DNA from: an uncultured Gemmatimonadales bacterium
GTDB lineage: Bacteria > Gemmatimonadota > Gemmatimonadetes > Gemmatimonadales > Gemmatimonadaceae
DNA length: 64,000 bases
Assembly (NCBI GenBank): GCA_963851265.1
Contig: CAWKNZ010000002.1
Location: forward strand, 32,001 to 96,000
Direction: 5' to 3'
The translations under genes were made by a program, and so were the position numbers. Shown here one piece after another: positions 41,538-64,000 of the stretch (the first letter of the stretch is position 1; each line of letters starts with the position of its first letter). Below the pieces are notes generated by a model. It worked only from the letters and a program-made list of their open reading frames with translations. It was not told the origin of the DNA and did not search any database.

Positions 41538-42503
41538 CTACTGCCGCGACCCCACCCCGGCGAGAGCGTCCGGTGTCGGCCGCGCATCCTCCACTTCGTC
41601 CTCCGACTCGATCTGCGGTGGCGGCGCTGGGAATCCCGCCAGCCACTCCCGCACGCACGCGAAGAACGCCGCGCGGTGCGCCACGCCCGAGAACAGGTGG
41701 TCCGCACGCGAAAACACGCGCGTGGTCACCGCACCGTGCGCCGCCCCGCCGTGCGGCACCGCGCGGCCGAGGACCTCCGCCGTCTGCCGCTCGCTGTTGA
41801 AGATGGAATCGAACGTCCCCGTGAACACGAACAGCAGCCGCGCCCCGCGCCCCAGCACCGCGGCCACGTCCGACCGGAAGCGCGCACGCGTCGGGTACTC
41901 GCGCTGAAACACCGGCTGGCCCGCGCTGGCGTCCCCGGCCGGAGCCGTGCGCGCGAATCGCCGCCGCAGCGAGCGCCACCGCGCGAACCGCTGCCAACGC
42001 TCCAGCTGCAGGTACCGCAGGGTCTGGCGGCGCACGTAGTAGCCGAACGTCGGATACGTGTAGCCGTCGACGAACACCGCGCCCACCACGCGCCGGTCCG
42101 CGACCGCTACCGGGTGCATGCTGTCGACCCCCGAACACAGCCCCACGAGTACCACCTCGCGTATGCCGAACTGTGCCTCCAGCCAGTCCAGCGCCTCACG
42201 CACGTCGGCCGTCGCCTGCTCACTACTCCCCTGCGCCCCGGCCCTGGGCAGACTGTCGCCCAACCCCGAGAGGTCGAAGCGCAGGGCGTACCACCCCATG
42301 GCCGCGGCGGCACGCGCCAGCTCCACGTACAGGCGGAATGGCCCGACGTGGTGGCTCAGTCCGATGTTCGCCATCACCACCGCCCGGCGCGGCGCCGCCA
42401 CGCCGGACACGCCCGCGTCCGCCGGGTGCGAGACCACGCCGACCAGCCCCCGGTGCGAGCCGAACACGACGGCGCGCTCGACCACCGCCGTCGCGTTAGA
42501 CAT
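41538..42503 (-). CDS. alpha/beta hydrolase with GLCSG elbow (exosortase-associated hydrolase-1-like)
   Basis: HHVGPFRLYV, LRFDLSGLGDS, VGLCSG, ADHLF; overlaps the upstream gene. Confidence 0.85.
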   Translation of the reverse strand: MSNATAVVERAVVFGSHRGLVGVVSHPADAGVSGVAAPRRAVVMANIGLSHHVGPFRLYVELARAAAAMGWYALRFDLSGLGDSLPRAGAQGSSEQATADVREALDWLEAQFGIREVVLVGLCSGVDSMHPVAVADRRVVGAVFVDGYTYPTFGYYVRRQTLRYLQLERWQRFARWRSLRRRFARTAPAGDASAGQPVFQREYPTRARFRSDVAAVLGRGARLLFVFTGTFDSIFNSERQTAEVLGRAVPHGGAAHGAVTTRVFSRADHLFSGVAHRAAFFACVREWLAGFPAPPPQIESEDEVEDARPTPDALAGVGSRQ

Positions 42504-43320
42504 GGACAGGTCCCTGCGGAACGCGCGTCGCGATGTAGTCGCCGATCGCGCCGGGAATGTGGCGCGCCATGAGCGTATCGCTCTCCCAGTGCCCGCCGCG
42601 TGCGAGCGTCGCGTCCGCGACGTGGCGCACCTCGCACCGCCCGCCGCGCGCACCGAGTGCCGCACCGAGCGCCGCGTACTCCGGGCCTTCGTCCGCGCCA
42701 ATCACGAGCACCCGACCGGGCGCACCGCACCCCTCGGCCATCAGGTCCACGGCGGCGATCTCCGCGCGCATCGCCGGCGTCATCAAAAAGCCGAGTAGTT
42801 CGTCCGCCGCGCGGCGATCGTCTTCGGGGTACCTGCGCTCGCCCAGCCCGGACGCCTGCTCCGCGTCGAGCCCTGCGAGGTACTCCACGCCCCGCGCGAC
42901 CGGGTCCCACAGCACGAGGTCCGAAACGGCGAGACCGGCCGCACACGCGCGTGCCGCGACCACGGCGCCGAGCCGTAGCCCGACGAGCGCCGGCCGCCGC
43001 ACCCCGGCCACGTCTTGCAACTCGCGCGCGGCCATGCGCGTGTCCTCCACCCACCGCGCGAGGCTCCCTTCGTCCGACTCGCCCGCCGAGTCACCCGTTC
43101 CCGCATAGTCGAAACGCAGTACGTGCACCCCGGCGGCCGCGAGTGCGGCCGCCAGGCGCCGGTACGCCCAGTGCGCCTGGCGGTATTCCTGCGGCCCCGG
43201 ATAGCAGAGCACCACGCCGCTCCGGCGCGGTGCTGTGACGCGGGCCGCGATCGCGACCGACGCCGGATGGTACACGCCGAACAGCTGGCGGCCGGTGTCG
43301 CCAAAGAATCGGGGAATCAT
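42496..43320 (-). CDS. alpha/beta hydrolase with GLRLG elbow (exosortase-associated hydrolase-2-like)
   Basis: LFGVYHP, C.P..QEY, LRFDYAGTGDS.G, VGLRLGA, LWDPV. Confidence 0.85.
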   Translation of the reverse strand: MIPRFFGDTGRQLFGVYHPASVAIAARVTAPRRSGVVLCYPGPQEYRQAHWAYRRLAAALAAAGVHVLRFDYAGTGDSAGESDEGSLARWVEDTRMAARELQDVAGVRRPALVGLRLGAVVAARACAAGLAVSDLVLWDPVARGVEYLAGLDAEQASGLGERRYPEDDRRAADELLGFLMTPAMRAEIAAVDLMAEGCGAPGRVLVIGADEGPEYAALGAALGARGGRCEVRHVADATLARGGHWESDTLMARHIPGAIGDYIATRVPQGPVHV

Positions 43321-43357
43321 CTGAAGCTCGGGACGTACCTGGACTGTCGCCCGGCTG

Positions 43358-49300: not shown

Positions 49301-50194
49301 GTCGAGCACCTCCTGCGCGCGCCGCACGTGACGCACCGAAAGCGCCTCACCGCCCGTCAGCAGCTGACGAAGGCCGCGGAGCGCGGCGGGCGCCTCGTCG
49401 ACCACCGCGTTGAACAGCCCGGCCGTGAGCCACATCGTCGTCACGCCGTCCTCCGCGATCGCGCACGCGAGCCCTTCCGGGGTCGGCACGCGGTCGCGGT
49501 AGAGCGCGCACGTGCCGCCCGTGAGCAGCGGCCCGAAGATCTCGAACGTGGACGCATCGAACCCGAGCGGCGCGGCGTGTAGCACCGTGTGCGCCGGCCC
49601 GAGTTCGACGTAGTCGACGTCGCACACGAGGCGAACGATCGCCCGGTGCGGTACTTCGACGCCCTTGGGCTCACCCGTCGATCCCGAGGTGAACATCACG
49701 TACGCACGATCGTCCGGCCCCACCGCGGCCGCGGGCCGTTCGGCCGACCTCTCCTCAGGTGCCGCGTACGTCTCCGGCCCGTCGAGTCGTAGAACGGTCC
49801 ACGCCCCCGCCGGAACGCGCTCGGCGTGCGCAGCGTCGGTGATGACGACCGGCGACGCGGTCGCGCGCAGCAGGTGCGCGAGGCGCTCCGCGGGATACGA
49901 CTCCTCGAGCGGAACGTACGCCGCGCCGGCCTTCAGGATCGCGAGCAGCGCGGCCACCATCGCCGGCGTGCGGTCGAGGCACACGCCCACGGCCGCGCCG
50001 CGCCCGACGCCGCGGGCCTGCAGTGCGGCGGCGAGCTGGTTCGCGCGCGCGTCGATCTCGGCGTAGCTCGTGCTGGCACCCGCGTGGCGAACCGCGGCCG
50101 CGTGCGGCGTGCGGGCGACCTGCGCTTCGAACGCGGCGTGCACCGTCGCCGGGCGCGCCATCCCGGCCGGCGTCGTCGTGCGCCGCTCGCTCAC
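43358..50194 (-). CDS. hybrid NRPS-PKS: A-PCP-KS-AT-ACP-aminotransferase (class III)
   Basis: A (FTSGSTGEPKG, YGPTE, YRTGD, PNGK), PCP (DLGASSL), KS (DPQQR, TACSTS, HGTAT, GH), AT (GHSVG, HAFHS), ACP (GIDSL), AMT (NTGSEA, DEIVTGFR, YGKIVGGG); GTG 50194 overlaps the PPTase stop. Confidence 0.95.
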   Translation of the reverse strand: MSERRTTTPAGMARPATVHAAFEAQVARTPHAAAVRHAGASTSYAEIDARANQLAAALQARGVGRGAAVGVCLDRTPAMVAALLAILKAGAAYVPLEESYPAERLAHLLRATASPVVITDAAHAERVPAGAWTVLRLDGPETYAAPEERSAERPAAAVGPDDRAYVMFTSGSTGEPKGVEVPHRAIVRLVCDVDYVELGPAHTVLHAAPLGFDASTFEIFGPLLTGGTCALYRDRVPTPEGLACAIAEDGVTTMWLTAGLFNAVVDEAPAALRGLRQLLTGGEALSVRHVRRAQEVLDGTQLINGYGPTETTTFAACYAIPSPVPESWTSVPIGYAIRQTTLRVLDAERRSVPAGETGELFIGGAGVALGYLGRPDLTAECFVHDAWSDDAGARLYRTGDLVRTLPNGALEFVGRADDQVKISGYRIEPKEVATSLRRVPGVRDAAVVARAVAEGLPKRLVAYVVAEATARPADGAIREALRATLPEYLVPSAFVWLSVLPLTPNGKVDVRALPAPDVGGTPAHVAPAEQDAAGAISQVWAELLGVPRVGPDDNVFDLGASSLLVVRARARLQTRLGLDIPIAHFFQHRTPRAMAGHIAGDAPVQVVAPRGIDRTNGRADGAPEPVAIIGMAARFPGAADVDAFWRNLRDGVESISRFSDAELDAAVDPRLRADPQYVAARGTLRDVDQFDAGFFGLSPREAQIMDPQQRLFLELAWHALEHAGYVPERHDGPVGVFAGVYNNSYASTVLARRPDVVEQFGAFNAMLLNEKDYVATRTAHRLGLTGPALSIHTACSTSLVTICQAVMSLRAGQCDLALAGGVSLTVPTNSGHLYQEGGMLSPDGRTRPFDAAASGTVFSDGAAVLALKRLSDAVRDGDTIHAVVRGVGLNNDGAAKASFTAPSVDGQAAAVAMAHADAGVSPHEISYVEAHGTATPLGDPVEFAALSQVFGGRPADAGPCALGSVKGNVGHTVVAAGAAGVIKTALALAHECLPGTVHYTAPNPHLALERSPFRVQAEPRAWARGARPRMAGVSSFGVGGTNAHIVLGEAPLPPSDGPSRGAQLLVLSARSEAALERATDDLVAHLRARPDACLADVAHTLRVGRRAFAHRRAVVASSPADAADAFAARDERRVHTRRSGGGAPSVVFAFPGQGAQYPRMGAALYAGEPVYRAAFDRCAEGARAVLGRDLRELLFADGPDTAAVLRQTSVTQPALFATGYALAELWQSWGVRPWAMVGHSVGEFVAAAIAGVFSPEDGMRLVAERGRMMQQLPTGSMLSVRLGAAAVAPRLGAELAIASENGPALCVVAGPTEAVARLQAELDAEGVACRPLHTSHAFHSPMMEPAVAPFLDIVRGVALAAPTTPIVSSVTGTWLTPEQACDPRYWARHLRETVRFADAVRTVWSEPGALLLEVGPRATLSTLARQQVTDRATQACVASLGDAGDPAVEGEAVLSALGRLWTCGVRPDWDGVVRGEARRRVPVPCYPFERQRYWVDPLPPEPLPAGSSSRASAAAAAPPAPSVTPPLDASARVALPPAVSNTARLPRLVSQVCELFETVSGVEIGAGDAAESFVELGIDSLVLTQVSLAVAKRFGVRVTFRQMIEEYTTVDRLAAHLDAAMPPEQADYVEAAAPELAAVVPSAAAVAVPPTVVGSAGGTVAGTVAAPMLVEMGGGHAVQQLIEQQLRVMTQQLALLSGSARAAEGVALAAPAPVAPPPAVAAPTVAAPTVVPPNVVAPASAVAADTPAADDAPLVTTGPQREFYDAKKAFGAAPRITPKGSADLDARQRSRFDAFMRRYTARTAGSKQFADAHRARMADPRAVTGFRPATKELVYPLVVGRSAGSRMWDVDGNEYVDVLSGFGSNLFGWSAPFVVEAVKRQLDLGFEVGPQHPLAAEVAELFAEVTGAERVAFCNTGSEAVLGAIRIARTVTGRDLVAIFGGSYHGINDEVIVRGTRTHRAVPAAPGILRSATDNVLVLDYGTPESMAVLRERAHELAAVVVEPVQSRRPDFQPAEFLRELRALTQEQGIVYVWDEIVTGFRAAPGGAQEHFGIRGDLATYGKIVGGGLPIGVIAGKREFMDALDGGAWRFGDASVPEVGVTYFAGTFVRHPLALAAARAVLLELKARGPALQRMLADRTRDLADELNAMFRASGAPLEIRHFASVWKTFYTAEQPHGDLLFYMLRDRGVHVYDGFPCFMTASHSTEDLRLVVDAFTSAVAEMQEGGFLPPRPAESAPAAVGAPPVPGARLGRARDGSPAWFVAHPNEPGRYVQVGGP

Positions 50195-50949
50195 GACACG
50201 CGCCCCGTCCTGCTCCACCGGTCGACCGCCGGAAGCGCGAGACACGTGTAGACATGGCCGTCCGCGATCGCGAACGCCACGTCGAACACCGCGCCGGCGC
50301 CGAACGTCGCCGAGGCGTCATCCCCGCCGAGGCCGCGCGTGAGGCGCAGGCGAACGGTGCGCGCCACACGGTCGAGTCGCGTGAGCCGGGCGTCGTCGAC
50401 GTCGAAGAACTCGCCGACCAGCGGGCGCAGGCACTTGTAGAGACTCTCTTTCGCCGAGAACCCGACGGTGACGAACTCCGCCCACGAGATCGCGTCGTCG
50501 CGGGCGACGGCATCGGCTTCGGGCAGCGCACTGCGCATGATCTCGTCCGCGTCGCGTTCTGCGAGCACCTGTTCGCAATCCACCCCCAGCCCGCGCCAGC
50601 GCGCCGCCGAACCGACGATCGCGACCGCGCGCGTGGCCGCGTGGGAGATCGAGCCGACCGCACCTGCCGGCCACGCGGGCGCACCGGCGTCGCCGATCGC
50701 GACCGGTACGTCGCCGTTCCACCCGGCCGCATCTAGCGCCAGCGACGCGCAGTAGCGCCCCGCCAGGTATGCAGCGAGTCGGCGCGGCGCAGCCCGCACC
50801 AGCGCGGGTTCGTAGGCGACGACCGACTCGCGACACCCGTCGCCGACAGCGGCGAAGCACACCGCGTGCGCCGACCACCCCCCGCGCCGAACGATCGCGG
50901 GCGCGACGACGTCGCTGACGTGCAACGCGGCATCGTCGCGTCCCGCCAT
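50191..50949 (-). CDS. 4'-phosphopantetheinyl transferase (EntD-type)
   Basis: R...YLAGR.CA, P.WP.G.VGSISH, GVDCE, FSAKESLYK; start uncertain. Confidence 0.9.
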   Translation of the reverse strand: MAGRDDAALHVSDVVAPAIVRRGGWSAHAVCFAAVGDGCRESVVAYEPALVRAAPRRLAAYLAGRYCASLALDAAGWNGDVPVAIGDAGAPAWPAGAVGSISHAATRAVAIVGSAARWRGLGVDCEQVLAERDADEIMRSALPEADAVARDDAISWAEFVTVGFSAKESLYKCLRPLVGEFFDVDDARLTRLDRVARTVRLRLTRGLGGDDASATFGAGAVFDVAFAIADGHVYTCLALPAVDRWSRTGRVS

Positions 50950-51104
50950 GCGCACGCGCATGCTGCGCGGGTGCACGCCGCGCGCGTGTACCGCGTCGGC
51001 TACGCCCGGGGGCTCGTACAAGGTTCTCATTGCGTGCTCATGCGTAGGTGGTGCAACTCGTCGTTCTGCGAGAGATTGGCGCACTTCGCCCATTTCTCGG
51101 ATCT

Positions 51105-52040: not shown

Positions 52041-55000
52041 GCGGAACCGCCGAGCATCCGCTTGATGCGCCCGAACACGCCCTCGGACGTCGCGATGGCC
52101 GCGGATGGCTCGCCGCCGCGCGCCGCCGGATGGCCGGCCTGATCGGACGCGTCGATCTCCGCAGCGACCTGCTCTAACGTGCCGAGCAGCACGACGCGCG
52201 GGCTGACGCGTACGCCCCGCTCGCGCGTGACGCGGTCGATGAAACGGAAGCAGAGCAGCGAGTGCCCCCCGAGGTCGAAGAACTTGTCCGTGCTGTGCAG
52301 GCTCGGCGTCCCGAGCAGCTCCCGCCAGAGTGCCGCGACGTACTGCTCGGTTGGCGTGGTGGGGAGTGCCGCGGGTCTCGCCGCCTCCCAAGGTGCCGCG
52401 ATCGCCAGCCGATCCCACTGCGGAGCGCCGTCCGCGCCCCGCGCGAGTCCGTCAACCTCGACGAAGTGCTGCGGGACCGCCGCCTCGGGGAGCACCTCAC
52501 GAACGCGCTGCCTCAACTCGGTTTCGGTGTACCCCGCGCCGCGCGCCGGTACGACGCACGCGATCGGGCGGGGCTCGCCGTACTCGTCGGTGCGCACGGT
52601 GACGGCCGCGTCCGCGACGCCCGTGTGACCGCGGAGCGCCGCGGCGATGGCCTCGAGTCCGAACACCCGCCCGCTGCGGCCCACCCGACCCGGTTCGGGC
52701 GCGAGCACCTCCACGCGCCCATCCGCGGTGCGGCGCGCCCGTTCGCCGCTCCGGAACGCGCGCGCGCCGGAGCGGAGGGGGTCGTCGACGAACCGCGGAT
52801 CGCCTGCGCGCAGCCGTGCCGCCGCCTCCACGGCCGCCCCAGCGACGTGAAGCCACCCGGGCACGCCCGGCGCGACGACCTCGCCGTGCGCGTCCAGCGC
52901 GAACAGACGGGCGCCCGGGAGCGGCGCGCGGGCGATGCCGCTCGCGGCGTGCGGGGCATTGTTAGGAACACCCATCGCGTTCCAACCGCCGGCCGCGGCG
53001 TGACCGAAGATCGCGAGCACACGCGTCGCGAGACGCGAGACGGTCGCGAGCAGCTCCGGCGTCGCGCCGTCGGTCACGAGCGCGGTGAGCCGCGCGTCCC
53101 CGTTCCACCCTGCGACATCCAGCTCGCGCCAGACGTCTGCCGGCGCCGCCACGAACGTCGCGCGGACGTCCTGAAGCCACTCGGCAAGCAGCGACCCGTC
53201 AACGTCGGAGCCGTCCGGCGGGGGCGCGAGCGCCGCGCCACACGCGAGCGGCAGCAGTAACTCCAGCAGCGCCGCGGGCGCCGCGGGCGAGTGCACGGGC
53301 ACGGCAATCGTTGCCTCGCTCACGTCGAGGCGTGCGGAAAGGCCGGCGGCGAGCGCGTCGAGACCCGCGCGCGAGAGTGCGGCCGTCGTCGGACGCCCCG
53401 AGGCGTCGACGTCGTGCAACACGAACGCCACCTCGTCAGCCGCGCCGACGTCCTCACCAGAGGTCAGCAACGTCGCGCCGGTTGTGATCGCATCGAGCGC
53501 GATGCGCGGAACGCTCGTGCCAAGTGCGCGCACGCCGGCCGCGGTCGTGAGCGCGCAGGCGACGCCAGCCGACGCCGCGACCGCGTCGTTGTACGCGGCC
53601 GGGTCGCGGGTGTCGAGCAGCAGCGCGGCGCCGTGCGCAGCGCGCACGCCGAGCATCGCCGCCGCGCGCGACGCGACGTCGTCCGCCAGCACGGCCACGC
53701 GCGCCCCGGCGGCGACTCCGCTAGCCGCGAGCGCCGCACGGACCGCTTCGGCACGCGCGAGCAACTGCCCGTAACTGACCGGGCCGCGCGACGGGTCGTT
53801 CACGGCGATGGCGTCCGGGCGTGCGGTGCCTGCCGCGACGATCGACGCGACGAGCGAACGCGCCGGCTCGTCCGCGCCCTCGACGAGCGCGTCGTCGCCG
53901 ACCGCGGAGCGCAACTCGTCCGTACTGAGCAGCGGCAGCCGCCCGATCGTCTGGTGCGGGTCGTCGAGCACCGACATCAGGAGCGTTCGAAGGTGCGCCA
54001 GGAGTCGTTCGGCCGTCGCGCGCTCGAACAGGTCCGTGCTGAAGTTGAGGACCGCCAGCAATCCCTGCTCCCTGGACATCGTCCACAGCATCAGATCGTT
54101 CGTCGCCGCAGTCTGCGGCATCTGCACCTGCTCGACCCGCAGACCGGCGGCGGCCCGCGGACGCGCGCGCGCGTCCTGCATCGAGAACAACGCCCGCAGC
54201 GCAGGCACCTTCCCGCCCAGCAGCTCGAACGGCATGTCCTGGTGCGCGAACGCGTCGAGCGTGACGTCCCGCACGCGGCCTAACAGCGCGGCGAACGACG
54301 CTGCCGGGTCCACGTCGAACCGCAGCATCACGGTGTTGACGAACGCGCCGACCACCGGCTCCGTCTCGGGCCACGTGCGCGCGCGCACCGGCGTCCCCAC
54401 GAGCAGGTCACGCTGGCCCGAGTACCGATGCAGGAGCGCGTTGTACGCCGAGAGCAGCAGCATGAACAGCGTCGCCCCGTGCGCGTGCGCGAGGGCCGTG
54501 AGTCGGTCCACCTCGGCGTTCGTGAACGCGATGTGCGCGCGCCCGCCGCCGTAGGTCGGCTGCGCGGGCCGCGGCCGGTCGGTCGGCAGCTCGAGCGTCG
54601 GCAGGTCGTCGCCGAGGTGCGCCCGCCACCACGCCACATGCCGCCCCATCTCCGGCGACGTCAGGTACGACTGCTGCCACGCCGCGAAATCGCCGAGCGT
54701 GATCGGAAGTTCGGCCAGCACGGGCGCGCGCCCAACGGTGCGCGCCTCCAACAGTTCGCAGAATTCGGTGATGAAGATGTCGAACGACCAGCCGTCCCAC
54801 ACCAGCCCGTGGCGCACGGTGTAGAGCAGGTGCTCGCCCGGCGCGAGCGTGATGAGCGCCGCGCGGAGGAGTGGCGCGACGGCCAAGTCGAACGGCGTGG
54901 CACCTTGCTCCTCGACGTAGGCGGTGACCGCCGCATCGCGTTCGGCCGGGTCGAGATCCGAGAAGTCCAGCCGCACCAGGCCGATCCGCGCGTCCGGCTC

Positions 55001-58000
55001 GACGACCTGAACGGGGACGCCGTCCGCCAACTCGAAGCGCGTCCGGAGCTGATCGTGCCGTTGCGCGAAGTCGTCGAGCGCACCCTCCACGGCGCCGGCG
55101 TCGACGTCACCGGTCAGTTGCCACGCGGCGGCGTGCACGTGCGTCGCCGCAGTCGCCGGGTCGAGCTCCTCCAGGCGCCAGATCCGGTGCTGCAACGCCG
55201 TGAGCGGCGCGCGCGTGCGGGTCGGGTCGTGCGGGATGGTCGATGCTCGGGCCGAGCCCGTTCCAATCGAGCCTTGCGTCTCGCCCGTCTCCCGCGCGAC
55301 CAGCGCCGCGAACCGCTCGACCGTCGGCGCTTCGAAAATGCGCCGGTAGGCCAACTCTACGCCGTGGTCACGCCGCAAGCGTCCGAGCACCTGCGCGGCC
55401 ATGAGCGAATGTCCCCCGAGCTGGAAGAAGTCGTCGTGCGCGCCGACCCGTCCCACGCGCAGCGCCTCGGCCCACAGCTCCGCGACGAGGCGCTCGGCCG
55501 GTGTGCGGGGTTCCACGAACGCGGTCCCGGACGCGGGCGTGTGTGCGGCCGCGAACCCTCGCGGCTCGGGGAGCGCCGCGCGGTCGACCTTGCCACTCGG
55601 CGTGAGCGGCAGGGCCGGCAGCACGACGAACGTCTGCGGGATCATGTAGTCCGGGAGTGCCGCCCGAAGGTGGGCGCGCAGCTCCTGTTCGTTAGGCACC
55701 ATCGCCGCCGCGACCACGTACGCCACGAGGCGCCGGTCGTCGGGCCGGTCCTCGCGCACCACGACGACACACGCACCCACGCCCGGGCACTCGCCGAGGC
55801 GGGTTTCGATCTCGCCGAGTTCGATCCGGTAACCGCGCAGCTTGACCTGATGGTCGTTGCGGCCGAGGCACTCGAGCGTGCCGTCGCCCAGCCGGCGGAC
55901 GACGTCTCCCGTTCGGTACATGCGGGCGCCCGGCTCGCCCGCGAACGGGTCCGCGAGGAACCGCTCCGCCGTGAGCTCCGGGCGGCGCAGGTAGCCGTTC
56001 GACACGCCCGTGCCGCCGATGAAGAGCTCGCCGCGCACGCCGACCGGAACCGGCTGCATCCGCGCGTCGAGCACGTACGCGCGCGTGTTCGCGATCGGGC
56101 CGCCGATCAACACGCGGGCGACCGGCGACTGCACGCGCCAGAACGTCGACCAGACCGTCGTTTCGGTCGGACCGTAGCCGTTCCACACCTCGCCAGCTCG
56201 CGCACAGAGCGCGTCGCCCAGATCCCGGGGCATTGCCTCGCCCGTGCAGATCACACGCAGGTGTGACCCGCCTTCCCACCCCGCGGCGAGCAGGAGTCGG
56301 TAGGTGGCCGGCGTCGCGTCGATGAACGTGACGCGTTCGCGCTCGACCAGGGCGCGAAGTTGGACGCCGTCGGCCGCGACCTCTCGTGAGGCGAGCACGA
56401 CGCGCGCACCGACGGTCAGCGGCAGGATCGTCTCGGACACCGCGATGTCGAACGACAGCGTCGTGATCGCGAGTACGACGTCGCCCGCGGTCATGCCTGG
56501 CGTCTGCTGCACGGACAGCAGCAGGTTGACCACCGCGCGGTGCGGCACGACCACGCCCTTGGGACGGCCGGTGGAGCCGGAGGTGTAGATGACGTACGCC
56601 GGCCCGTCCGGCTCGGGCTCGTCCGAGTCGACGTGCGCCGCGAACGGCTCGGTCGAGAGCGCGGCGATCGACGGCGCGTCGGCGCCGTCGATCGACACGA
56701 CCGGGACGTCGGGGCGCGCGGCCGTGAGCGGCGTGTCGGCGCGCACCGACTCTTGGGTGAGGAGCAGTGCGATCTGGGCGTCGTCCGCGGCGTGCGTGAG
56801 CCGGTCGACCGGGTGGCCCGGGTCGAGCGGCACGTACGCGCCGCCGGCCTTGAGCACGGCAAGCACGGCGACGAACAGTTCCGCCGTGCGCTCGAGGCAG
56901 AGGCCGACGAACGCGCCGCGCCGGACGCCGCGCGCGCGCAGGTGGCGCGCGAGCCGGTTCGCGCGCGCGTCGAGTTCGCCGTACGTGAGCGCGCGGACGC
57001 CGTCGTCGATCGCGACTGCGTTAGGCGTACGCGCCGCCTGCGCCTCGACGAGCGGGTGCACGAGCGGGCACTCGGGGAGGGCCAGCGCCGGCCCGGCCGC
57101 GGCCGATTCGTGCGCGGTCGTGAGCGGGAGCGACCCGACCGTCACATCGGCCGCTCCGTCCGCGTCGGCGACGCCCTCGAGCAGGCGTTCGTACGCCGCG
57201 AGCCATGCGCGCACGGTCTCGGCATCGTAGAGCGCGGTGTTGTACTGGCACTCGAGCGTGACCGCGCCGTCCAGCTCGACCGCGTTGACGAACAGGTCGA
57301 AGTTCTCGCTCGAGCGCGGGACCGCGTGCAGCGTCGCCGACATTCCCGCGAATGGCATCGCCGCCGCGGTGATGCCCTTGTCGACGTTGAACGCGACCGA
57401 GACGAGCGGCGGGCGGCCGGGGTCGCGCGCGAGCGGCAGGCGCGCGAGCAGGCTGCCGAGCGTCACCGACTGGTGTTCCTGCGCGTCGAGCATCTGCCGC
57501 CGCACGTGGGCGAGCGCGTCGCGCACCGGCGCGTCGCTCGTTAGGCGCAGCCGCACGGGGAGCATGCTCACGAGGTGGCCGACCAGCCGCGGCATGCCGC
57601 AGGCGGGCTGCCCCGCGGTGGGCACGCCGATCACGAGGTCGTCGCCTCCCCCCAGCCGGTGCAGGAGCATGCCGAACGCGCCAAACAGCGTCGCGAACTG
57701 GCTCGCCCCCGCACGCGCGCCGGCGCGCGTCGCGCGCCGCACGAGGTCCGCGCCGAGCACGTAGTCCACGCGCGCGGCCGCGTACTGGCGAGTCGCGGGG
57801 CGGGGGTGGTCCGTAGGCAGGTCGAGGACGGGCGCGCCCTGCGCGAACTGGTCCAGCCAGTACCGCTCGGCCGCATCGACCGCGGCGAGCGCGTCCGGGT
57901 CTGCCGCGGCACCGGCGTAGGCCGCGAACGAATCGGCCGGCGGAAGGTCCAGCGGCCGGCCGGCTCGGCGCGCGGTGTACGCCGCCGCGAGCTCGGGGAC

Positions 58001-58516
58001 GATCACGCCGAACGACCAGCCGTCGCACACGATGTGGTGGGCCGAGATGACTAACGCGTGCTCGTCCGGCTCGAATCGCGCGAGGTCGAATCGCACGAGC
58101 GGACCCTGCAGCAGGTCGAACGGTTCTGCCACGACCCGTGAGCGCAGTGCCTGCCACGCGGCGTCACGTGCGGCGGCCGGCAGCGGATGCCAGTCGTGGC
58201 GCACGACGGGCACGTCGGCCGGCGCCTCCGCGATCGCGACGACGGTCCCGTCGGCCGAGAATGTCGCGCGAAGTGCCTCGTGGCGCGCGACCACGTCCGC
58301 CACGGCGCCGACGAGTGCATCCACGTCGAGCATACCACGCAGGCGCACTTCGACCGCCTCGTTGAACGCGAGCGACGCTTCCGTCCCCATCCACGTCGCC
58401 GCCCAGATCTCGCGCTGCGCGGCCGTGGACGGCACGGCGCTGGCGAGTGCGGGGCCGGCGAACGGGTCGAAGTCGTCGGTCGGGGAGAAGCTGGTCGGGG
58501 CGATGGCGGTAGTCAC
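52037..58516 (-). CDS. NRPS: C-A-PCP-C*-A*(degenerate)-PCP, no thioesterase
   Basis: C1 HHIVCDG; A1 YTSGSTGRPKG/YGPTE/YRTGD/PSGK; PCP GGHSL; C2 HGLVWDG; eroded A2; terminal PCP GGHSL; start GTG 58516 (alternative 58561). Confidence 0.94.
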   Translation of the reverse strand: MTTAIAPTSFSPTDDFDPFAGPALASAVPSTAAQREIWAATWMGTEASLAFNEAVEVRLRGMLDVDALVGAVADVVARHEALRATFSADGTVVAIAEAPADVPVVRHDWHPLPAAARDAAWQALRSRVVAEPFDLLQGPLVRFDLARFEPDEHALVISAHHIVCDGWSFGVIVPELAAAYTARRAGRPLDLPPADSFAAYAGAAADPDALAAVDAAERYWLDQFAQGAPVLDLPTDHPRPATRQYAAARVDYVLGADLVRRATRAGARAGASQFATLFGAFGMLLHRLGGGDDLVIGVPTAGQPACGMPRLVGHLVSMLPVRLRLTSDAPVRDALAHVRRQMLDAQEHQSVTLGSLLARLPLARDPGRPPLVSVAFNVDKGITAAAMPFAGMSATLHAVPRSSENFDLFVNAVELDGAVTLECQYNTALYDAETVRAWLAAYERLLEGVADADGAADVTVGSLPLTTAHESAAAGPALALPECPLVHPLVEAQAARTPNAVAIDDGVRALTYGELDARANRLARHLRARGVRRGAFVGLCLERTAELFVAVLAVLKAGGAYVPLDPGHPVDRLTHAADDAQIALLLTQESVRADTPLTAARPDVPVVSIDGADAPSIAALSTEPFAAHVDSDEPEPDGPAYVIYTSGSTGRPKGVVVPHRAVVNLLLSVQQTPGMTAGDVVLAITTLSFDIAVSETILPLTVGARVVLASREVAADGVQLRALVERERVTFIDATPATYRLLLAAGWEGGSHLRVICTGEAMPRDLGDALCARAGEVWNGYGPTETTVWSTFWRVQSPVARVLIGGPIANTRAYVLDARMQPVPVGVRGELFIGGTGVSNGYLRRPELTAERFLADPFAGEPGARMYRTGDVVRRLGDGTLECLGRNDHQVKLRGYRIELGEIETRLGECPGVGACVVVVREDRPDDRRLVAYVVAAAMVPNEQELRAHLRAALPDYMIPQTFVVLPALPLTPSGKVDRAALPEPRGFAAAHTPASGTAFVEPRTPAERLVAELWAEALRVGRVGAHDDFFQLGGHSLMAAQVLGRLRRDHGVELAYRRIFEAPTVERFAALVARETGETQGSIGTGSARASTIPHDPTRTRAPLTALQHRIWRLEELDPATAATHVHAAAWQLTGDVDAGAVEGALDDFAQRHDQLRTRFELADGVPVQVVEPDARIGLVRLDFSDLDPAERDAAVTAYVEEQGATPFDLAVAPLLRAALITLAPGEHLLYTVRHGLVWDGWSFDIFITEFCELLEARTVGRAPVLAELPITLGDFAAWQQSYLTSPEMGRHVAWWRAHLGDDLPTLELPTDRPRPAQPTYGGGRAHIAFTNAEVDRLTALAHAHGATLFMLLLSAYNALLHRYSGQRDLLVGTPVRARTWPETEPVVGAFVNTVMLRFDVDPAASFAALLGRVRDVTLDAFAHQDMPFELLGGKVPALRALFSMQDARARPRAAAGLRVEQVQMPQTAATNDLMLWTMSREQGLLAVLNFSTDLFERATAERLLAHLRTLLMSVLDDPHQTIGRLPLLSTDELRSAVGDDALVEGADEPARSLVASIVAAGTARPDAIAVNDPSRGPVSYGQLLARAEAVRAALAASGVAAGARVAVLADDVASRAAAMLGVRAAHGAALLLDTRDPAAYNDAVAASAGVACALTTAAGVRALGTSVPRIALDAITTGATLLTSGEDVGAADEVAFVLHDVDASGRPTTAALSRAGLDALAAGLSARLDVSEATIAVPVHSPAAPAALLELLLPLACGAALAPPPDGSDVDGSLLAEWLQDVRATFVAAPADVWRELDVAGWNGDARLTALVTDGATPELLATVSRLATRVLAIFGHAAAGGWNAMGVPNNAPHAASGIARAPLPGARLFALDAHGEVVAPGVPGWLHVAGAAVEAAARLRAGDPRFVDDPLRSGARAFRSGERARRTADGRVEVLAPEPGRVGRSGRVFGLEAIAAALRGHTGVADAAVTVRTDEYGEPRPIACVVPARGAGYTETELRQRVREVLPEAAVPQHFVEVDGLARGADGAPQWDRLAIAAPWEAARPAALPTTPTEQYVAALWRELLGTPSLHSTDKFFDLGGHSLLCFRFIDRVTRERGVRVSPRVVLLGTLEQVAAEIDASDQAGHPAARGGEPSAAIATSEGVFGRIKRMLGGSA

Positions 58517-58539: not shown

Positions 58540-59457
58540 TCAGCGAATCGGGACGTGGCACACCCGTTCACGTCGCGGGCGGAGCAGCATTGTGAGTACG
58601 ATGAGCACGAACTTCGGATCCTGAACCAGGTAGCGCCGCCAGAGGCGGCGTGGCTCCTGGCCGAGCCGGTACGCCCACTCCAGTCCCGCGCGCGACATCC
58701 ACGCGGGCGACCGGCGGAGCGCACCGGCGAGGAAGTCGAGGCTCGCGCCGACACCGACGGCGACCACCGGGCCCATGGCGGGCAGCGCTCGGGCGATGAA
58801 CAGCTCCTGCTTCGGCGCGCCGAGGCCGACGAAGAGGAGGTCGGGCCGGGCCGCGCGGATGCGCGCGATCACGGGCGCGTCGGCCGCGTGGTCGGGTTCA
58901 CACGAGATGCGCGCGTCGTCGGTGCCGACGACGTTCACGCCGTGGTCGTCGCGCAGCCGGCGCGCGGCCTCGACCGCGCTGCCCGGGCCTCCGCCCAACA
59001 CGTACACGCGCCAGCCGCGCTGGGCGGCGCGCTGCGCCATCGGCAGCAGCATGTCGGAGCCCGAGAGCTTCTCCGGAACGGCGGGGCGCAGCAGGCGCGA
59101 GGCCCAGACGAGCGGGACGCCGTCGGTCAGACTGAGGCTCGCGCCGGCGTAGGCGGCGCGGAACCCGGCGTCGTGCTCCGCCATGACGACGTGGTCGACG
59201 TTCGGCGTGAACACCGAGCCGCCCTCCCCGCGCGCGACGAGGGCGTCGAGGGCGTCGAGGGCCTGGCCGCGTGTGAGCACGTCAACCCAGAGGTGACCCA
59301 TGCGCAGCCGCGCGCGCGTGGGGGCGGGCGCCGGCGGCGCGTAAACCGGTGACCCGTCGACGGCCGCCGCGTACGCGGGCGTCGCACGGGGCGAGCGCGT
59401 GCGGACCGCGGGGATGTAGTCGGTGGGGGTCGGCGCGGGCGCCGCGGTCGTGCTCAT
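58540..59457 (-). CDS. WecB/TagA/CpsF family glycosyltransferase (GT26)
   Basis: TPNVDH, DG.PLVWA, SGSD, LGAPKQE, GLEWAYRL.QEPRRLWRRY. Confidence 0.94.
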   Translation of the reverse strand: MSTTAAPAPTPTDYIPAVRTRSPRATPAYAAAVDGSPVYAPPAPAPTRARLRMGHLWVDVLTRGQALDALDALVARGEGGSVFTPNVDHVVMAEHDAGFRAAYAGASLSLTDGVPLVWASRLLRPAVPEKLSGSDMLLPMAQRAAQRGWRVYVLGGGPGSAVEAARRLRDDHGVNVVGTDDARISCEPDHAADAPVIARIRAARPDLLFVGLGAPKQELFIARALPAMGPVVAVGVGASLDFLAGALRRSPAWMSRAGLEWAYRLGQEPRRLWRRYLVQDPKFVLIVLTMLLRPRRERVCHVPIR

Positions 59458-59933
59458 CGGTCGCGCACGGTGATGCTGCCGACGAAGTGCGGATGACCGA
59501 CGGCCGCCACCGTGCGGCGTGCGTCGCCCACGACGCCCGTGCCGAGTGGGACGACGAGCAGGGCCGCGTCGGCCGCGCGTGCGAGCGGGATGGCCGGGGC
59601 CCGCACGAGGGGCGACGCGAGGACGACGAGTACGCGCGCGCCGGCCGCCGCGCGTCCGCCGACGGCGCCGATCACCTGCTGCACGTCTTCTGGCGCGGCG
59701 TGCTCCGCATCGATCACCTCGACCGGGGTCGCCTGGTACGCGCGCGCGGCGCCGGCGAGGCGTTCGGCCAGCGGCCACGCCGACGTGCCGGGATCGGCCG
59801 GAACGAGGGCGAGTGAGCCCCAGCCGTGCTGTTCGAGCGTGAACCAGAGATGCGCCCACTCCCCGGCGTCGACGGTGGACGTGCCGGCGTCGACGGTGCC
59901 TGATGCGCGGGGGTGCGGTTCGATCGACATCAT
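59454..59933 (-). CDS. stand-alone BY-kinase-fold pseudokinase-like protein (myxobacterial WzeX/EcpK-like)
   Basis: 159 aa; LWF..W.SLALVPA, VLVVL.SP, LA.AADAALLVV.LG resemble a CpsD/CapB fold without Walker A GK(S/T); coupled inside the EPS operon. Confidence 0.55.
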   Translation of the reverse strand: MMSIEPHPRASGTVDAGTSTVDAGEWAHLWFTLEQHGWGSLALVPADPGTSAWPLAERLAGAARAYQATPVEVIDAEHAAPEDVQQVIGAVGGRAAAGARVLVVLASPLVRAPAIPLARAADAALLVVPLGTGVVGDARRTVAAVGHPHFVGSITVRDR

Positions 59934-61192
59934 GGGTGACGGAGTGCAGAGGGATGCGACGGACGCGGGGCGGCGCCCTCCGCGGCGGGTGCGATCGGGA
60001 CGGCGGCCTGCGGCGCGCGCGCGGTGCGCACCCACGCATCGCCGCGCGTGCGCGGGCGTAGCGCGACGGCGAGTTTCCACGCCGCGTACGCCGGCCCCCA
60101 CGCGAGGTCGAGCACCACACGTGGGCCGTGGCCGGCGAGCGCCGCCCCGCGCGCGACGTACGCCGCGAGACAGACGAGCGCCGCCCCCCACGGGGCAACG
60201 CCCACCACGCCGGCCCACCCGGACCAGGCGGCTACGGCCGCCGTCACGGTCCCGAGGAGCGCGACCGCGCCGAGCGTGGTCAGCGGTGGCACGAGCAGGT
60301 CGGCGGCGAGGTCGAGCGGCACGCGGTCCTTGCGCACCCACGTCGCCCGGACGAGTGTCGGCACGAGGCGGCGGACCAGGTCGGCCCTGCCGTTTTCCCA
60401 GCGTTCCCGCTGCGTCTGGGCGGCCTCCGCCGTGACTGGCATCTCGCCGAGTACGGTGGCTTCGGGGACGTACGCGACGCGCACGCCGGCCGCGCCGAGG
60501 GCGACGCCGTATTCGACGTCCTCGACGCGCGAGAACGCCTGGTGCGGATGCCGGCGGAGCGTATTCATGCTGAAGCCCATGCCGTTTCCCCGCAGTCCGC
60601 ACGAGAGCCCGAGCCGCTCGCGTCCGAGCGAGCGGGTGGTGTGGTAGCAGGCGAAGGCGACGGCCATGAGCCGCGTCCGCCACGAGGCGTCGGCGTTGCG
60701 CACACCGTACTCCGCCTGGACCGACGCCTCGCCCGCGCCGAAGCGGGCGGCGAACGCGCGCAGCAGGTTGGGCGAGACCACCGTGTCGGCGTCGACCACC
60801 ACGACCGCGTCGGCGACGCCGTCGGCGATCGACACGCCGTAGGCATGGGCCAGCGCGTAGCCCTTGCCGCGCCGCGCCGCGTCGTGCCGATCGAGGACGA
60901 GTGCGCCGGCCGCGCGCGCCCGAGCCGCGGTGTCGTCGGTGCAGTTGTCGGCGACGACCAGCACGCGGTACCGCTCGCGCGGGTAGTCGAGCGCGAGCAG
61001 GCTACTGACGGTCGCGCCGATACCCTGCGCCTCGTCGTGCGCGGGAACGATCACGTCGAAGCGCACGCGATCGTTTGGTGCGGGCGGCGTGACGTCGCGT
61101 GCGGCGGCCGCGAGCATCGCGAGGTAGCCCGACGCGGCCAGCACGGGAGTGCCTGCGACTGCGAGCGCGACGTTCACGAAGGCGGGCGTCAT
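59930..61192 (-). CDS. glycosyltransferase family 2 (processive-type motifs)
   Basis: VPAHDE, ADNCTD, GKGYAL, VDAD, GNGM, ED, QRERW. Confidence 0.93.
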   Translation of the reverse strand: MTPAFVNVALAVAGTPVLAASGYLAMLAAAARDVTPPAPNDRVRFDVIVPAHDEAQGIGATVSSLLALDYPRERYRVLVVADNCTDDTAARARAAGALVLDRHDAARRGKGYALAHAYGVSIADGVADAVVVVDADTVVSPNLLRAFAARFGAGEASVQAEYGVRNADASWRTRLMAVAFACYHTTRSLGRERLGLSCGLRGNGMGFSMNTLRRHPHQAFSRVEDVEYGVALGAAGVRVAYVPEATVLGEMPVTAEAAQTQRERWENGRADLVRRLVPTLVRATWVRKDRVPLDLAADLLVPPLTTLGAVALLGTVTAAVAAWSGWAGVVGVAPWGAALVCLAAYVARGAALAGHGPRVVLDLAWGPAYAAWKLAVALRPRTRGDAWVRTARAPQAAVPIAPAAEGAAPRPSHPSALRHP

Positions 61193-62766
61193 GCAGCCCC
61201 CCGCGCGCGCGGCGCCGACGCGCCAAAGAGGCGCGTGCGCTGGGGCCACGCGCCGGTGCTCACCGCGAGCTGGCCCGAGGCGGCGAGCGCCACCGCGAGC
61301 ATCCCCTGTGTGGTCCACGACTGCGTGCCCATGTCGGCCCACGCCTGAATGAGGAACGCGACGAACGTGGCGAGCGCGCCGTACGCGACCGCCCGGTCGA
61401 GCGGCGACGCCGCGAACGCGCGGGCGCGGGCCGCGAGGAACACGCCGGTGGCGATCGGGAGCCAGAGCAGGGTGAAGCCCAAGAGCCCGCCGATGCTCCA
61501 CATCCACAGCACGCTGTTGTGCGCGATGTAGCGGTACTGCGGGAAGTACTTGGAAATGTCGTCCGCGTGGACGACCTCGACGTACTCGTGCCCCCACCCC
61601 GACCCGACGAGCGGGTTGCGCCGGAGCGTCGTGAGAAGGTTGTAGTTTTCGATGTCGCGCGTCTGGCTGGACGCGTCCTTTTGCGTCGCCACCGACATCA
61701 GCTTGGCGGCCGGCGCGAACAGCGATCCGGTGCGGTTGCGGCCGACGGCGACGTACAGGCCGACCACCGGGAGCGCGGCTAGCCCGGCGAGGGTGACGGA
61801 GCGCCGCGCGCGCCGCGGCAGGGTCGCGTAGAACATCACGGCCGCGCCGAGGAGCGTGACGTAGGCGGTGCGGCGGTTGTTGATGACGAGCCCGAACAGC
61901 GTCCACGCCGTGAGTGCGCCGGCGACGATGTAATGCCTGACGCTCGGCCGGTAGTAGGCCGCCGCGAGCCAGACGGCGAGCGAGACCACGAAGAGCACCG
62001 AGTCCGCGTGACTCGTGACCGTGGCCGGCACGATCCCGAGCGGGCGGGCGACGCGGAAGTAGTAGTAAGCGCCGATGAGGATCTTGGTGCACGACACCGC
62101 GGCCGCGATGCCGGCGAAGAGCGCCGCGTCACGCGCGCCGCGCATGGTCGCGCAGAGCAGCATCGCGAGCACCGGCATCCAGAGCAGCTGCCGGAACTGC
62201 CACAGCGATTGGCGCACGTCGCCGCCCCGTGCGACGCCCCACAGCTCCATCGCGAGCACCGCGGCGACGTTCAGGACGAGGGTGAGGACGAGCGGGCGCG
62301 CCGCCGGCACACGGCCCGCCGCGTCGGTGCGGTCGCCGGCGAGGGCGCGCACCGCGGCCAGCGCGACCAGCACCAACGCGAGCAACTCGAGACCCGAGAC
62401 GCGCGCCGCCTCCACGCCGACCAGCTTGTTGAGGTTCTCGACGAGGAGGAGCTGGAGCGGGTAGACCGGCGAGTGCCAGACCTCCGTGTCGTTAGGCAAG
62501 CGGCTCGGCGTGACGTCGGCCAGCATGGCGAGGGCGAGCGCGGCGAACAGCGGAACGCGCACGGGGAGCGTCGCCACCGCGTACGCGGCGGTGACGAGCA
62601 GGGCCGGAACCGCCGCGAGCAGCGGGTTCGCCGTCGTGAGCAGCACACCCGCGGACACGGCCACCGTGCCGCCCACGACGGCGACCAACACGTGATCGGC
62701 GCCCTCGCGGGGCGCCGACCAACGTCGGGGGGTGACGTCCCCGACGTACGCGGGGGCAGCGCTCAC
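61189..62766 (-). CDS. Wzy polymerase / O-antigen ligase family membrane protein
   Basis: about 12 TMs, NNRRTAY, R..ENYNL, P.VG.GWG, HNS.L; GTGA/ATGA overlaps with neighbours. Confidence 0.85.
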   Translation of the reverse strand: MSAAPAYVGDVTPRRWSAPREGADHVLVAVVGGTVAVSAGVLLTTANPLLAAVPALLVTAAYAVATLPVRVPLFAALALAMLADVTPSRLPNDTEVWHSPVYPLQLLLVENLNKLVGVEAARVSGLELLALVLVALAAVRALAGDRTDAAGRVPAARPLVLTLVLNVAAVLAMELWGVARGGDVRQSLWQFRQLLWMPVLAMLLCATMRGARDAALFAGIAAAVSCTKILIGAYYYFRVARPLGIVPATVTSHADSVLFVVSLAVWLAAAYYRPSVRHYIVAGALTAWTLFGLVINNRRTAYVTLLGAAVMFYATLPRRARRSVTLAGLAALPVVGLYVAVGRNRTGSLFAPAAKLMSVATQKDASSQTRDIENYNLLTTLRRNPLVGSGWGHEYVEVVHADDISKYFPQYRYIAHNSVLWMWSIGGLLGFTLLWLPIATGVFLAARARAFAASPLDRAVAYGALATFVAFLIQAWADMGTQSWTTQGMLAVALAASGQLAVSTGAWPQRTRLFGASAPRARGAA

Positions 62767-64000
62767 GGTCGGGGCGCCTCGCCGAGCACCGGCAGTCCGA
62801 CGAGCCGCGACACCTGCCACGCCTCGACGAGGCGCCCGCCGACGAGGTCCGCGGCGACGGCCGCGAACGCCGCGAGCAGGGCGGCGACGGCGAACCCGCC
62901 GACCAGGACGAGCGGTACGTTAGGCCGCGCGAGGTGCGTCGGGAGCTGCGCGGGCGTGATGACGGTATACCGGTACTTGAACGCCGCCTTGGCCGTTTCG
63001 AGTTCGATGCGCGCGGCCTCGAGCCGGTCGAGGAGGTCCTCGTAGTCGGCGACGGCGATCTTGAGGCGCGAGCGGGCGTACGTCAGCCGCGGGTCCTCGA
63101 GCGTGTCCACGGGCGCGGCAAGGCGCGCGAGGGCCGTGGTGGCGATGCTCGCCTCGGCCCCGGCGGGGCTCTGTACTGCGTCGGCGGCCGAGCCGCCGAC
63201 GGCGGCGACCTGCGACGCGAGCTGCCGTTCGGTGGCGCGGTGTACGGCTAGTTCGGGCGGCTCGGCGGCCAGCGCGGCGAGCGCCTGTTGGGTGTTCACC
63301 ACGTCGGGGTGCGCGGCGCCGTGCGTGAGGCGCAACTCGGCGAGGTGCGCCTTCAGGGCGCTGGCGCGCTGCGCGCGGTCGGATTCGGCGCTCGCGATGG
63401 TAGCGCGCTCGACGGCGAGGTCGCGCGAGAGGGCGGCGGCCGCCGGGTCGCTCCGGCGCCGCGACACTCCGCCCCACGCGGCCGGAGCCACGCGGACGAC
63501 CGGCGCGTGCGCGGCGGTCGGCGTCAGCTGTTTGACCTGCGAGAGCGCCGTGTCGATCTGCGCGTGCGCCTCGGCCACGTGTGACTCGAGGATCCCGATG
63601 CTCTCGCCGATGAGCGACTGCTCGGAGGCGTGCCGGGCTTCGAGGAAGTTGCGCTGCGCGGCCTGCACCAGCTGCAGCGCGAGGGCCGGGTCGGGGAAGT
63701 GCACGCCGATGCGGACGGTGCCCTCGTCCGTGGTCACCCAGAGCTGGTGCTCCAGGTACCCGACGATTTCCTTGCGGCGCTCGTCGGCCGGCATTTTTAC
63801 ACCAAGCGCTTCTTTTACGGCGTCCTTGATCCGCCCGGCGGGTGACCGCAGGCGCGGCCACGCCTGCTCCAGGCCGACCTCCCGCACGAGCGCGACGAGG
63901 TTGGCCTGGTTCAGTACCGCCTCGGCGGCCATGCGCGTCGGCGCGTCCGATTCGGCGGGCACGGCGCGGCGCGGATTGCCGAGCGCGGGCATCACGAAGT
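62763..64000 (-). CDS. polysaccharide co-polymerase (GumC/Wzc-N-like chain-length protein), 5' end outside the window
   Basis: coiled-coil, HPDV motif, YRYTVITPA..P, C-terminal TM, GLPVLG; no kinase domain. Confidence 0.85.
   Translation of the reverse strand, partial: FVMPALGNPRRAVPAESDAPTRMAAEAVLNQANLVALVREVGLEQAWPRLRSPAGRIKDAVKEALGVKMPADERRKEIVGYLEHQLWVTTDEGTVRIGVHFPDPALALQLVQAAQRNFLEARHASEQSLIGESIGILESHVAEAHAQIDTALSQVKQLTPTAAHAPVVRVAPAAWGGVSRRRSDPAAAALSRDLAVERATIASAESDRAQRASALKAHLAELRLTHGAAHPDVVNTQQALAALAAEPPELAVHRATERQLASQVAAVGGSAADAVQSPAGAEASIATTALARLAAPVDTLEDPRLTYARSRLKIAVADYEDLLDRLEAARIELETAKAAFKYRYTVITPAQLPTHLARPNVPLVLVGGFAVAALLAAFAAVAADLVGGRLVEAWQVSRLVGLPVLGEAPRP

Follow-up and report, generated by a model that had tools for sequence, protein, structure and literature searches.

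The locus described here lies in a 64,000-nucleotide stretch (the window) of contig CAWKNZ010000002.1 from an uncultured Gemmatimonadales bacterium (assembly GCA_963851265.1, contig positions 32,001 to 96,000), which the names of its homologues suggest is Gemmatirosa-like. It joins exopolysaccharide (EPS) genes to a nonribosomal peptide synthetase (NRPS), a hybrid of NRPS and polyketide synthase (PKS) that carries an aminotransferase (AMT) domain, a phosphopantetheinyl transferase (PPTase), and a pair of alpha/beta hydrolases, HydA and HydB. Table 1 lists the features. Coordinates without a prefix are window positions, G000:C2 is the host genome contig, and the remaining G and L codes denote compared genomes and loci.

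Table 1. Features of the locus, from the upstream eps part to hydB
Feature	Position	Strand	Basis or remarks
Upstream eps part: OPX, likely outer-membrane (OM) barrel, phosphoglycosyl transferase, nucleotidyl transferase, EpsD-EpsC-like fusion, two hexapeptide proteins, Wzx, ricin-DUF1996 protein, GH18, GH44, methyltransferase	G000:C2:96.3-114 kb
Polysaccharide co-polymerase, EpsV-like, 3' part	62763..64000	-	NF041864 E=1.2e-85, 288 bits, cut-off 800; full gene G000:C2:94763-96331, 522 aa (gene call)
Wzy repeat-unit polymerase	61189..62766	-	PF04932; NF041870 Wzy_EPS E=1.6e-106, under cut-off
GT2 glycosyltransferase, EpsU-like	59930..61192	-	NF041865 E=3.1e-131, under cut-off
EcpK-like putative pseudokinase, 159 aa	59454..59933	-	no Walker A motif, no Tyr tail
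WecB/TagA/CpsF glycosyltransferase, EpsA-like	58540..59457	-	PF03808; TIGR00696 above cut-off; NF041872 E=1.8e-85
NRPS, 2159 aa, C1-A1-T1-C2-A2-T2 (C2 and A2 lack motifs), no thioesterase	52037..58516	-	domain and motif reading
abH3, 311-aa Ser-type alpha/beta hydrolase (GFSIG), hydrophobic N-terminal segment	51105..52040	+	PF12146; hydropathy
EntD/Sfp-type PPTase	50191..51030	-	PF17837, PF01648, NF007604; start 50961, 51030 or 51093
Hybrid A-T-KS-AT-ACP-AMT, ~2278 aa	43358..50194	-	domain and motif reading
HydA, alpha/beta-fold pseudo-hydrolase, Arg116 at nucleophile elbow (GLRLG)	42496..43320	-	alignments
HydB, alpha/beta hydrolase, Cys123 (GLCSG), His269, acid at 146 after strand 6	41538..42503	-

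The EPS genes in the window are the last five of a complete Wzx/Wzy cluster that extends 17 kb past the window. PHPT, glycosyltransferases, Wzx, Wzy, polysaccharide co-polymerase (PCP), and OPX protein are all present together (G000:C2:90540-113152). The initial annotation had described the five genes as joined by four-nucleotide start/stop overlaps, and these can be read in the sequence as GTGA at 62763-66 and ATGA at 61189-92, 59930-33, and 59454-57. It had also placed the EPS genes directly before the NRPS gene, and the WecB/TagA stop at 58540 is indeed separated from the GTG start at 58516 by 23 nucleotides, which contain AAGGA. The corresponding gap is 35, 11, and 26 nucleotides in the genus-mates G001, G004, and G003. 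Because the junction is also tight in these three genomes, it is no assembly artefact. Synteny extends over the whole locus in G001 and G004, and in G003 over the stretch that was fetched.

The other proposed couplings hold as well, with a GTGA overlap of the PPTase and hybrid genes at 50191-94 and an 8-nucleotide overlap of hydA and hydB at 42496-503. The listed genes do lie on one strand, but the run is not continuous, in that the plus-strand gene abH3, which the initial annotation did not list and which is convergent with the NRPS gene, separates the latter from the PPTase and hybrid genes. This opposite orientation suggests that the PPTase-hybrid-hydA-hydB block is probably under its own promoter. 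A promoter and terminator scan gave no promoters, and three terminators compared with 5.0 in shuffled sequences, which is nothing beyond chance.

The best NCBIfam matches of eight components of the eps cluster (EpsV, Wzy_EPS, EpsU, EpsA, EpsY, Wzx_EPS, EpsD, and EpsB) are Myxococcus eps families, and none of them reaches its equivalog cut-off (for example, 438 of 700 for EpsU, 401 of 800 for Wzx_EPS, and 354.5 of 370 for EpsD). In the M. xanthus eps pathway, as presented in the accessible text of PMC12004946, a co-polymerase without a kinase domain is accompanied by a stand-alone pseudokinase, EcpK, and the host locus has the same arrangement. The putative 159-amino-acid pseudokinase fits EcpK, known here by its description, in motif loss and position. 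This protein has no Pfam or NCBIfam match, and its single match is found about 4 kb from an epsA orthologue in Corallococcus. Unlike M. xanthus, which has two eps clusters, the host has one, to which the NRPS, PKS, HydAB, and PPTase genes are attached. The word "NRPS" is absent from the main text of PMC12004946, although the synteny in its Fig. S1 may show neighbouring genes. The earlier statement that no exporter is visible is correct inside the window; beyond it, however, Wzx, an OPX protein, and a likely OM barrel are encoded upstream.

The eps cluster also includes a second carrier system (G000:C2:103573-106070; L001:9573-12070), consisting of a hexapeptide-ACP protein and a hexapeptide-FkbH-like protein. 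The host ACP has lost its Ser (WDADG, compared with WDSLG in relatives), and the FkbH-like protein has 587 amino acids, compared with 724-799 in relatives. A 56-amino-acid hydrophobic gene between the OPX gene and epsV (G000:C2:96367-96537) shares 84-89% identity with its counterparts in G001 and G004 and has no family match.

Domain scans of the locus bear out the predicted proteins and domains, which are PCP, Wzy, GT2, WecG, an NRPS of the order C-A-T-C-A-T, the PPTase, the A-T-KS-AT-ACP-AMT hybrid, and two alpha/beta hydrolases. They also agree that the megasynthases contain no thioesterase (TE) or reductase domain. The hybrid has intact motifs throughout (KS Cys/His/His, AT GHSVG and HAFHS, carrier Ser, and AMT DEIVTG and GKIVGGG), and the scan found no KR, DH, or ER domain and no fatty-acyl ligase. 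Its domain order is that of McyE/MycA (KS-AT-ACP-AMT-C), in which AMT is followed by C; the two are split in the host and fused in L094 and G239. In contrast to McyE/MycA, where a fatty acyl or polyketide chain is the starter, the host line begins with an amino-acid A-T unit, and it has neither a TE nor a lipopeptide. The adenylation code is DAFWLGGTFK, which we take to be a Val code, and relatives have the same type or DVQFVAHVVK, presumably a Pro code. If the chemistry is that which we assume for McyE/MycA, the hybrid would give 3,4-diamino-5-methylhexanoyl-ACP. Because of the AMT-C fusions, and because the gene order is collinear in Corallococcus and Lysobacteraceae, the NRPS is placed downstream of the hybrid.

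The first NRPS module has intact catalytic motifs (HHIVCDG in C1) and the A1 code DISDITGVWK, and relatives have a Gly-type code at the same place (the Gly and Ser code names are likewise our assumption). The predicted domain order of the second module stands, but the module lacks the catalytic His of its C domain (HGLVWDG), the A3 loop, and the A10 Lys, whereas the Ser of T2 is kept. Among 46 NRPS rows longer than 1700 amino acids with this type of C2, 24 have lost both motif sets, 19 keep both, and three of one lineage (Anaeromyxobacteraceae-type) keep only the C2 His; the 24 include one duplicate (L037/L107), and related rows are not independent. The T2 Ser occurs in all terminal carriers of one alignment, and two shorter rows of another have no carrier motif. 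The conserved loss in C2 and A2 together with the retained T2 Ser argues that module 2 is, by its motifs, a conserved pseudo-module and that the product probably has one residue fewer than the number of domains would imply. At L058 the two codes are seemingly swapped, with a Val-type code in NRPS A1 and a DISDITGVWK-like code in the hybrid. G341 and G411 (L179-L182) each have two versions of the NRPS, of which one has an intact second module and the other a dead one, as well as two adjacent hydA/hydB pairs.

Module loci encode about 20 homologues of the abH3 protein, and the N-terminus is similar in most of them. The gene goes with the module in both Gemmatimonadota and Myxococcota, and does so even in Corallococcus, where the module is unlinked to EPS genes.

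HydB has a Cys at its nucleophile elbow in all 85 aligned sequences, and HydA has an Arg there in 71 of 72. In 32-row alignments, Cys123 and His269 of HydB are found in every row and Asp or Glu at 146 in 31, and HydA has no conserved C-terminal His. Hydropathy indicates no hydrophobic N-terminal segment in either protein. HydA follows the last carrier domain as a fusion in L091, L095, L096, L073, L099, G060, and G281, in the usual place of a thioesterase, and HydA and HydB are fused to each other in G005b, G010b, L073, G174, and G281. A HydA-HydB complex is predicted with high confidence, in contrast to controls, the best of which received no support at all. At least 77% of contacts are shared between runs, partner pLDDT is 83 or higher, and the predicted interface includes conserved residues of both proteins. 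Of solved complexes, 116 of 157 reach the mark used for such scores, as do 2 of 215 mismatched pairs; both rates are approximate for the alignments used here. Natural fusions tend to pass this scoring, although no like complex is found among solved structures. The modelling supports a HydA/HydB heterodimer.

The best named families are TIGR03100 for HydB (65.5 against a cut-off of 168.45) and TIGR03101 for HydA (72.4 against 202.75), the exosortase A-associated hydrolases 1 and 2, which occur with the acyl-CoA ligase TIGR03098. Unlike members of these families, the host proteins score far under the cut-offs and follow a multi-module NRPS-PKS rather than a single ligase. No exosortase match was found among the locus genes scanned by family profiles, and we found no tested function for either family in the open-access literature. 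Hydrolases of these types occur in EPS loci, such as Bcam1334 in the Burkholderia bep cluster, according to the accessible text of PMC3584217. The HydB model (pLDDT 84.6) has an alpha/beta hydrolase fold whose best structural match has a Z of 22.1 (rmsd 3.5, 231 aligned), and no single match stands out. Searches of solved structures with HydA and HydB gave generic esterases with no close or heterodimeric relative, and an ESM Atlas search gave unnamed hydrolase clusters only. The fused HydA-HydB of L021, L022, and L073 (about 590 amino acids) belongs to a recurring cassette with ACPS, acyl-CoA-dehydrogenase-like genes, a 305-amino-acid family, DUF1839, and a GH2-like gene.

The initial annotation had held that a line without a TE needs a trans-acting release step, and HydA/HydB would be a concrete candidate for this device. 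On balance, we consider it probable that a Val-derived 3,4-diamino-acyl-amino acid is transferred by HydA/HydB onto the lipid-linked repeat unit before flipping. The hybrid would load Val, extend it with malonyl, and transaminate the beta-ketone to give 3,4-diamino-5-methylhexanoyl-ACP. C1 would then condense the diamino-acyl group with the amino acid bound to T1, and C2-A2 would add no residue, perhaps forming with T2 a hand-over or docking unit. HydA would bind HydB and stand in for the thioesterase, and the HydB Cys would take the chain as a thioester and pass it to a sugar hydroxyl or amine on the cytoplasmic side. The decorated polymer would be exported by Wzx, Wzy, EpsV/EcpK, and the OPX protein, and on the outer face membrane-anchored abH3 might trim the tag, edit it, or transfer it again. 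Such a tag would add positive charge, as an optional accessory of the eps pathway. The cytoplasmic timing is proposed because HydA and HydB lack export signals by hydropathy and because, as described below, the flippase stays with the hybrid. More tentatively, HydA/HydB may be a heterodimeric Cys-based carrier-to-sugar acyltransferase that replaces the TE of many NRPS/PKS lines, with the megasynthases as interchangeable "side-chain factories" for EPS. In the host, the tag put on Myxococcus-type EPS before flipping would be a cationic, aminostatine-like peptide with a vicinal diamine.

Linkage of the module to polysaccharide genes was evaluated with HydB, which has at least 469 relatives among 598 candidate stretches; the best 80 were used for locus comparison. 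An AMT hybrid or NRPS orthologue accompanies 57 of these, and 49 of the 57 have at least 5 kb of free flank. Polysaccharide markers are found at 18 of these 49 module loci, compared with 12 of 451 control windows of 10 kb from the rest of G000; some of the markers are proteins of these very loci, which favours the former count. An OPX gene (by Pfam) is within 30 kb of 18 of 63 HydB matches, in 16 genomes, compared with 1 of 77 thioesterases in the same 47 genomes, or 3 of 81 when four thioesterases within 5 kb of HydB are retained. Without Corallococcus, the counts are 18 of 61 and 1 of 42. Kin and broken contigs would make any p-value for these proximity counts too strong.

The module is found again in Myxococcota, Acidobacteriota, Lysobacteraceae, and Comamonadaceae, in shuffled positions among the EPS genes. 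It is embedded in these genes or brackets them in varied orders in Lysobacter, Luteimonas, Comamonadaceae, Acidobacteriota, Polyangiaceae, Myxococcaceae, and G099. Wider flanks place it inside or around EPS genes in Lysobacter arvi, Luteimonas, Comamonadaceae, Sorangium, G079, G086, G099, G106, and G068. The association survives shuffling of gene order in several phyla, although Corallococcus is unlinked and some eps clusters lack the module. Of 250 sampled Gemmatimonadota, one has a close EpsU orthologue, but so do all five tested other-genus carriers of this HydB clade (G061, G062, G099, G446, and G447), including those in which the module is scattered; this co-occurrence might go back to a single transfer and shared descent. 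The HydB tree is a quick tree whose unresolved backbone does not support a count of independent gains or losses.

The module adjoins EPS clusters of two or more unrelated types (Myxococcus-type and Lysobacteraceae-type) in many gene orders, which also bears on whether it is merely a decaying hitch-hiker, that is, an independent cassette inserted beside eps in a few ancestors and co-transferred without any functional link. The patchy distribution, the dead module 2, and gene losses in G004 and G190 would suit such a history. Nonetheless, the catalytic motifs are conserved and the C2/A2 motif loss is common to a wide clade that keeps the T2 Ser, so that with the varied adjacency this explanation is very improbable.

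In G335, G427, and G073 (all Myxococcota), the sole Wzx_EPS-family match is directly upstream of the hybrid gene and epsV is elsewhere, a relocation that may represent one event. In G335, this flippase/hybrid site is 1.37 Mb from the rest of eps on the same contig. No wzx was found within the 60-kb eps region of G335 or the 40-kb region of G427. A lone Wzx that adjoins the module, as in these genomes and L088, is also compatible with a unit that caps or primes the chain, or that decorates another glycan linked to undecaprenyl pyrophosphate and sharing the flippase (O-antigen, glycoprotein glycan, or glycolipid anchor). In addition, a line of two megasynthases would be costly for stoichiometric decoration. 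WcbR and RkpA are reducing type I PKSs without NRPS modules, and presumably have an anchor role in capsules. The accessible text of PMC3908369 describes such PKS genes within capsule synthesis and export clusters, which resembles the host locus and is a precedent for roles outside the repeat unit. The host hybrid, in contrast, is a non-reducing NRPS-PKS that carries an aminotransferase, and it is accompanied by a second NRPS and a Wzx/Wzy pathway. The hybrid's lack of a fatty-acyl ligase and reductive PKS domains speaks against a cap or another glycan, as does the fact that the flippase beside it is the only Wzx_EPS match of those genomes and so probably serves eps itself. This alternative is therefore quite unlikely.

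At L212-L213 (G335) and L214 (G427), Wzy has 841-844 amino acids and a co-polymerase-like N-terminal part. An 11-transmembrane-segment gene beside the hybrid in G446 and G061 was considered as a flippase and rejected, because it is an amino-acid permease. A PPTase gene is found directly behind epsA in G190 (L185-L186), where the NRPS and hydAB were not found, and in G446 (L193-L194), where they are on other contigs.

A number of observations weigh against transfer to the repeat unit. With regard to whether homologous NRPS/PKS genes usually occur without EPS genes, the enrichment is strong and extends over several phyla, yet 31 of the 49 module loci have no polysaccharide marker within +-10 kb, some of which are linked on wider flanks. 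Complete Corallococcus genomes have 116-128 kb between HydB and the closest OPX gene, and epsU is megabases away from HydB. Linkage is likewise absent in G093, G071, G346, G341, G411, G379, and Anaeromyxobacteraceae. Of 121 genomes in the family of G063, only 36 have HydB relatives, and only 3 of 9 sites fetched from this family have polysaccharide genes. G190 has an eps cluster and no HydB match, several carriers have no close EpsU (16 of 47 genomes without a match at 1e-40), and G066 has the NRPS and HydAB, with no match for the hybrid. The host locus itself shows decay in its dead module 2 and damaged ACP and FkbH genes, and G004 (L006-L007) has no PPTase at the locus and an internally shortened abH3. 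Because unlinked carriers and eps clusters without the module both exist, the module is an accessory of eps, enriched but not obligatory, and in some lineages it may make a free compound. The originally proposed decoration of polysaccharide is thus supported in part: the EPS linkage is enriched in several phyla but not obligatory, and transfer is the most likely reading of the sequences.

Lysobacter NRPSs, moreover, carry a real, internal TE. At L075:2908-9084, L076, L087, and L090 the NRPS is C-A-T-C-T-TE-T and is followed by hydA, hydB, and wzx; one carrier has no A domain and a further carrier follows the TE. A Cys-His hydrolase might also just as well hydrolyse the chain or cyclise it, and on chemical grounds a free 4-amino group favours lactam release.

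These points raise the possibility that HydAB is a split thioesterase that frees a small molecule (a diamino-acyl amino acid or lactam), whose genes are in EPS islands because the product acts non-covalently in the matrix or is co-regulated, and which abH3 would activate or degrade at the membrane. Besides the many unlinked carriers, the nearest folds of HydB, which are esterases, the thioesterase DcsB, and GrgF, are consistent with this. In an unbiased sample of the phylum Gemmatimonadota with 25 HydB matches, all 12 fetched sites adjoin NRPS/PKS genes of varied architecture, and 6 are clearly in polysaccharide clusters, 3 partly, and 3 not, which also leaves room for a free product. However, no small-molecule exporter or resistance gene is among the annotated genes of G000:C2:73.5-114 kb, and ordinary TE lines of the same genomes avoid OPX genes, as counted above. 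Also, the flippase remains by the hybrid when apart from eps, and at L080 and L083 HydA and HydB belong to EPS clusters in loci that have no megasynthase. Release of a free molecule is thus unlikely, if to be taken seriously, and transfer onto the lipid-linked repeat unit is the explanation we prefer.

For single amino acids, carrier-dependent attachment to surface polymers is already known. In Dlt D-alanylation (DltA, C, B, and D), an amino acid is adenylated, bound to a carrier, and transferred to a surface polymer, to which it adds positive charge. The host line is comparable only as a works-like analogy; in contrast to Dlt, its cargo would come from several PKS/NRPS steps and be transferred on the cytoplasmic side by a Cys alpha/beta-hydrolase heterodimer. 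No MBOAT (DltB) or DltD-like gene was found among the locus genes scanned. An NRPS that modifies the C. difficile flagellin glycan was considered as a precedent and dismissed as wrong, since the accessible text of PMC5207246 does not contain the term and lists FemAB, ATP-grasp, cyclodeaminase, and aminotransferase genes. The Luteimonas abyssi genome paper (PMC4687298), in its accessible part, gives counts of NRPS/PKS genes only.

We found no description of a multi-module NRPS-PKS that feeds Wzx/Wzy exopolysaccharide in the open-access literature, a search that left subscription journals largely outside. The system is real, conserved, and uncharacterised. If the chemistry is confirmed, the line would be a form of carrier-dependent polymer decoration that is close to categorically new. 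This would give a function to widespread "TE-less orphan" clusters, which genome mining treats as incomplete natural-product pathways, and a mechanism to the TIGR03100/03101-like pair, as well as a modular route to functionalise polysaccharides. The carriers include named, cultured strains (Luteimonas wenzhouensis YD-1, Lysobacter arvi UC, and Corallococcus strains). These make decoration directly testable, and Corallococcus provides a natural unlinked comparison.

A cupin/JmjC-like gene (PF13621, weak) accompanies the module in Myxococcota (L047, L054, L061, L066, L074, L098, L121, and L183) and is a candidate tailoring hydroxylase, absent from the G000 locus. An AIM24/TIGR00266-like gene (40708-41493, minus strand) begins 44 nucleotides past hydB. 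It is present in G003 and, because it is missing in G001 and G004, is probably not part of the system. Positions 22185-38613 contain ordinary genes, including an acyltransferase, an M28 peptidase, a PLD-family enzyme, and a PMT-like membrane transferase. The same region includes a run with class III aminotransferase and GNAT genes that resembles arginine synthesis, and sensor kinase and response regulator genes.

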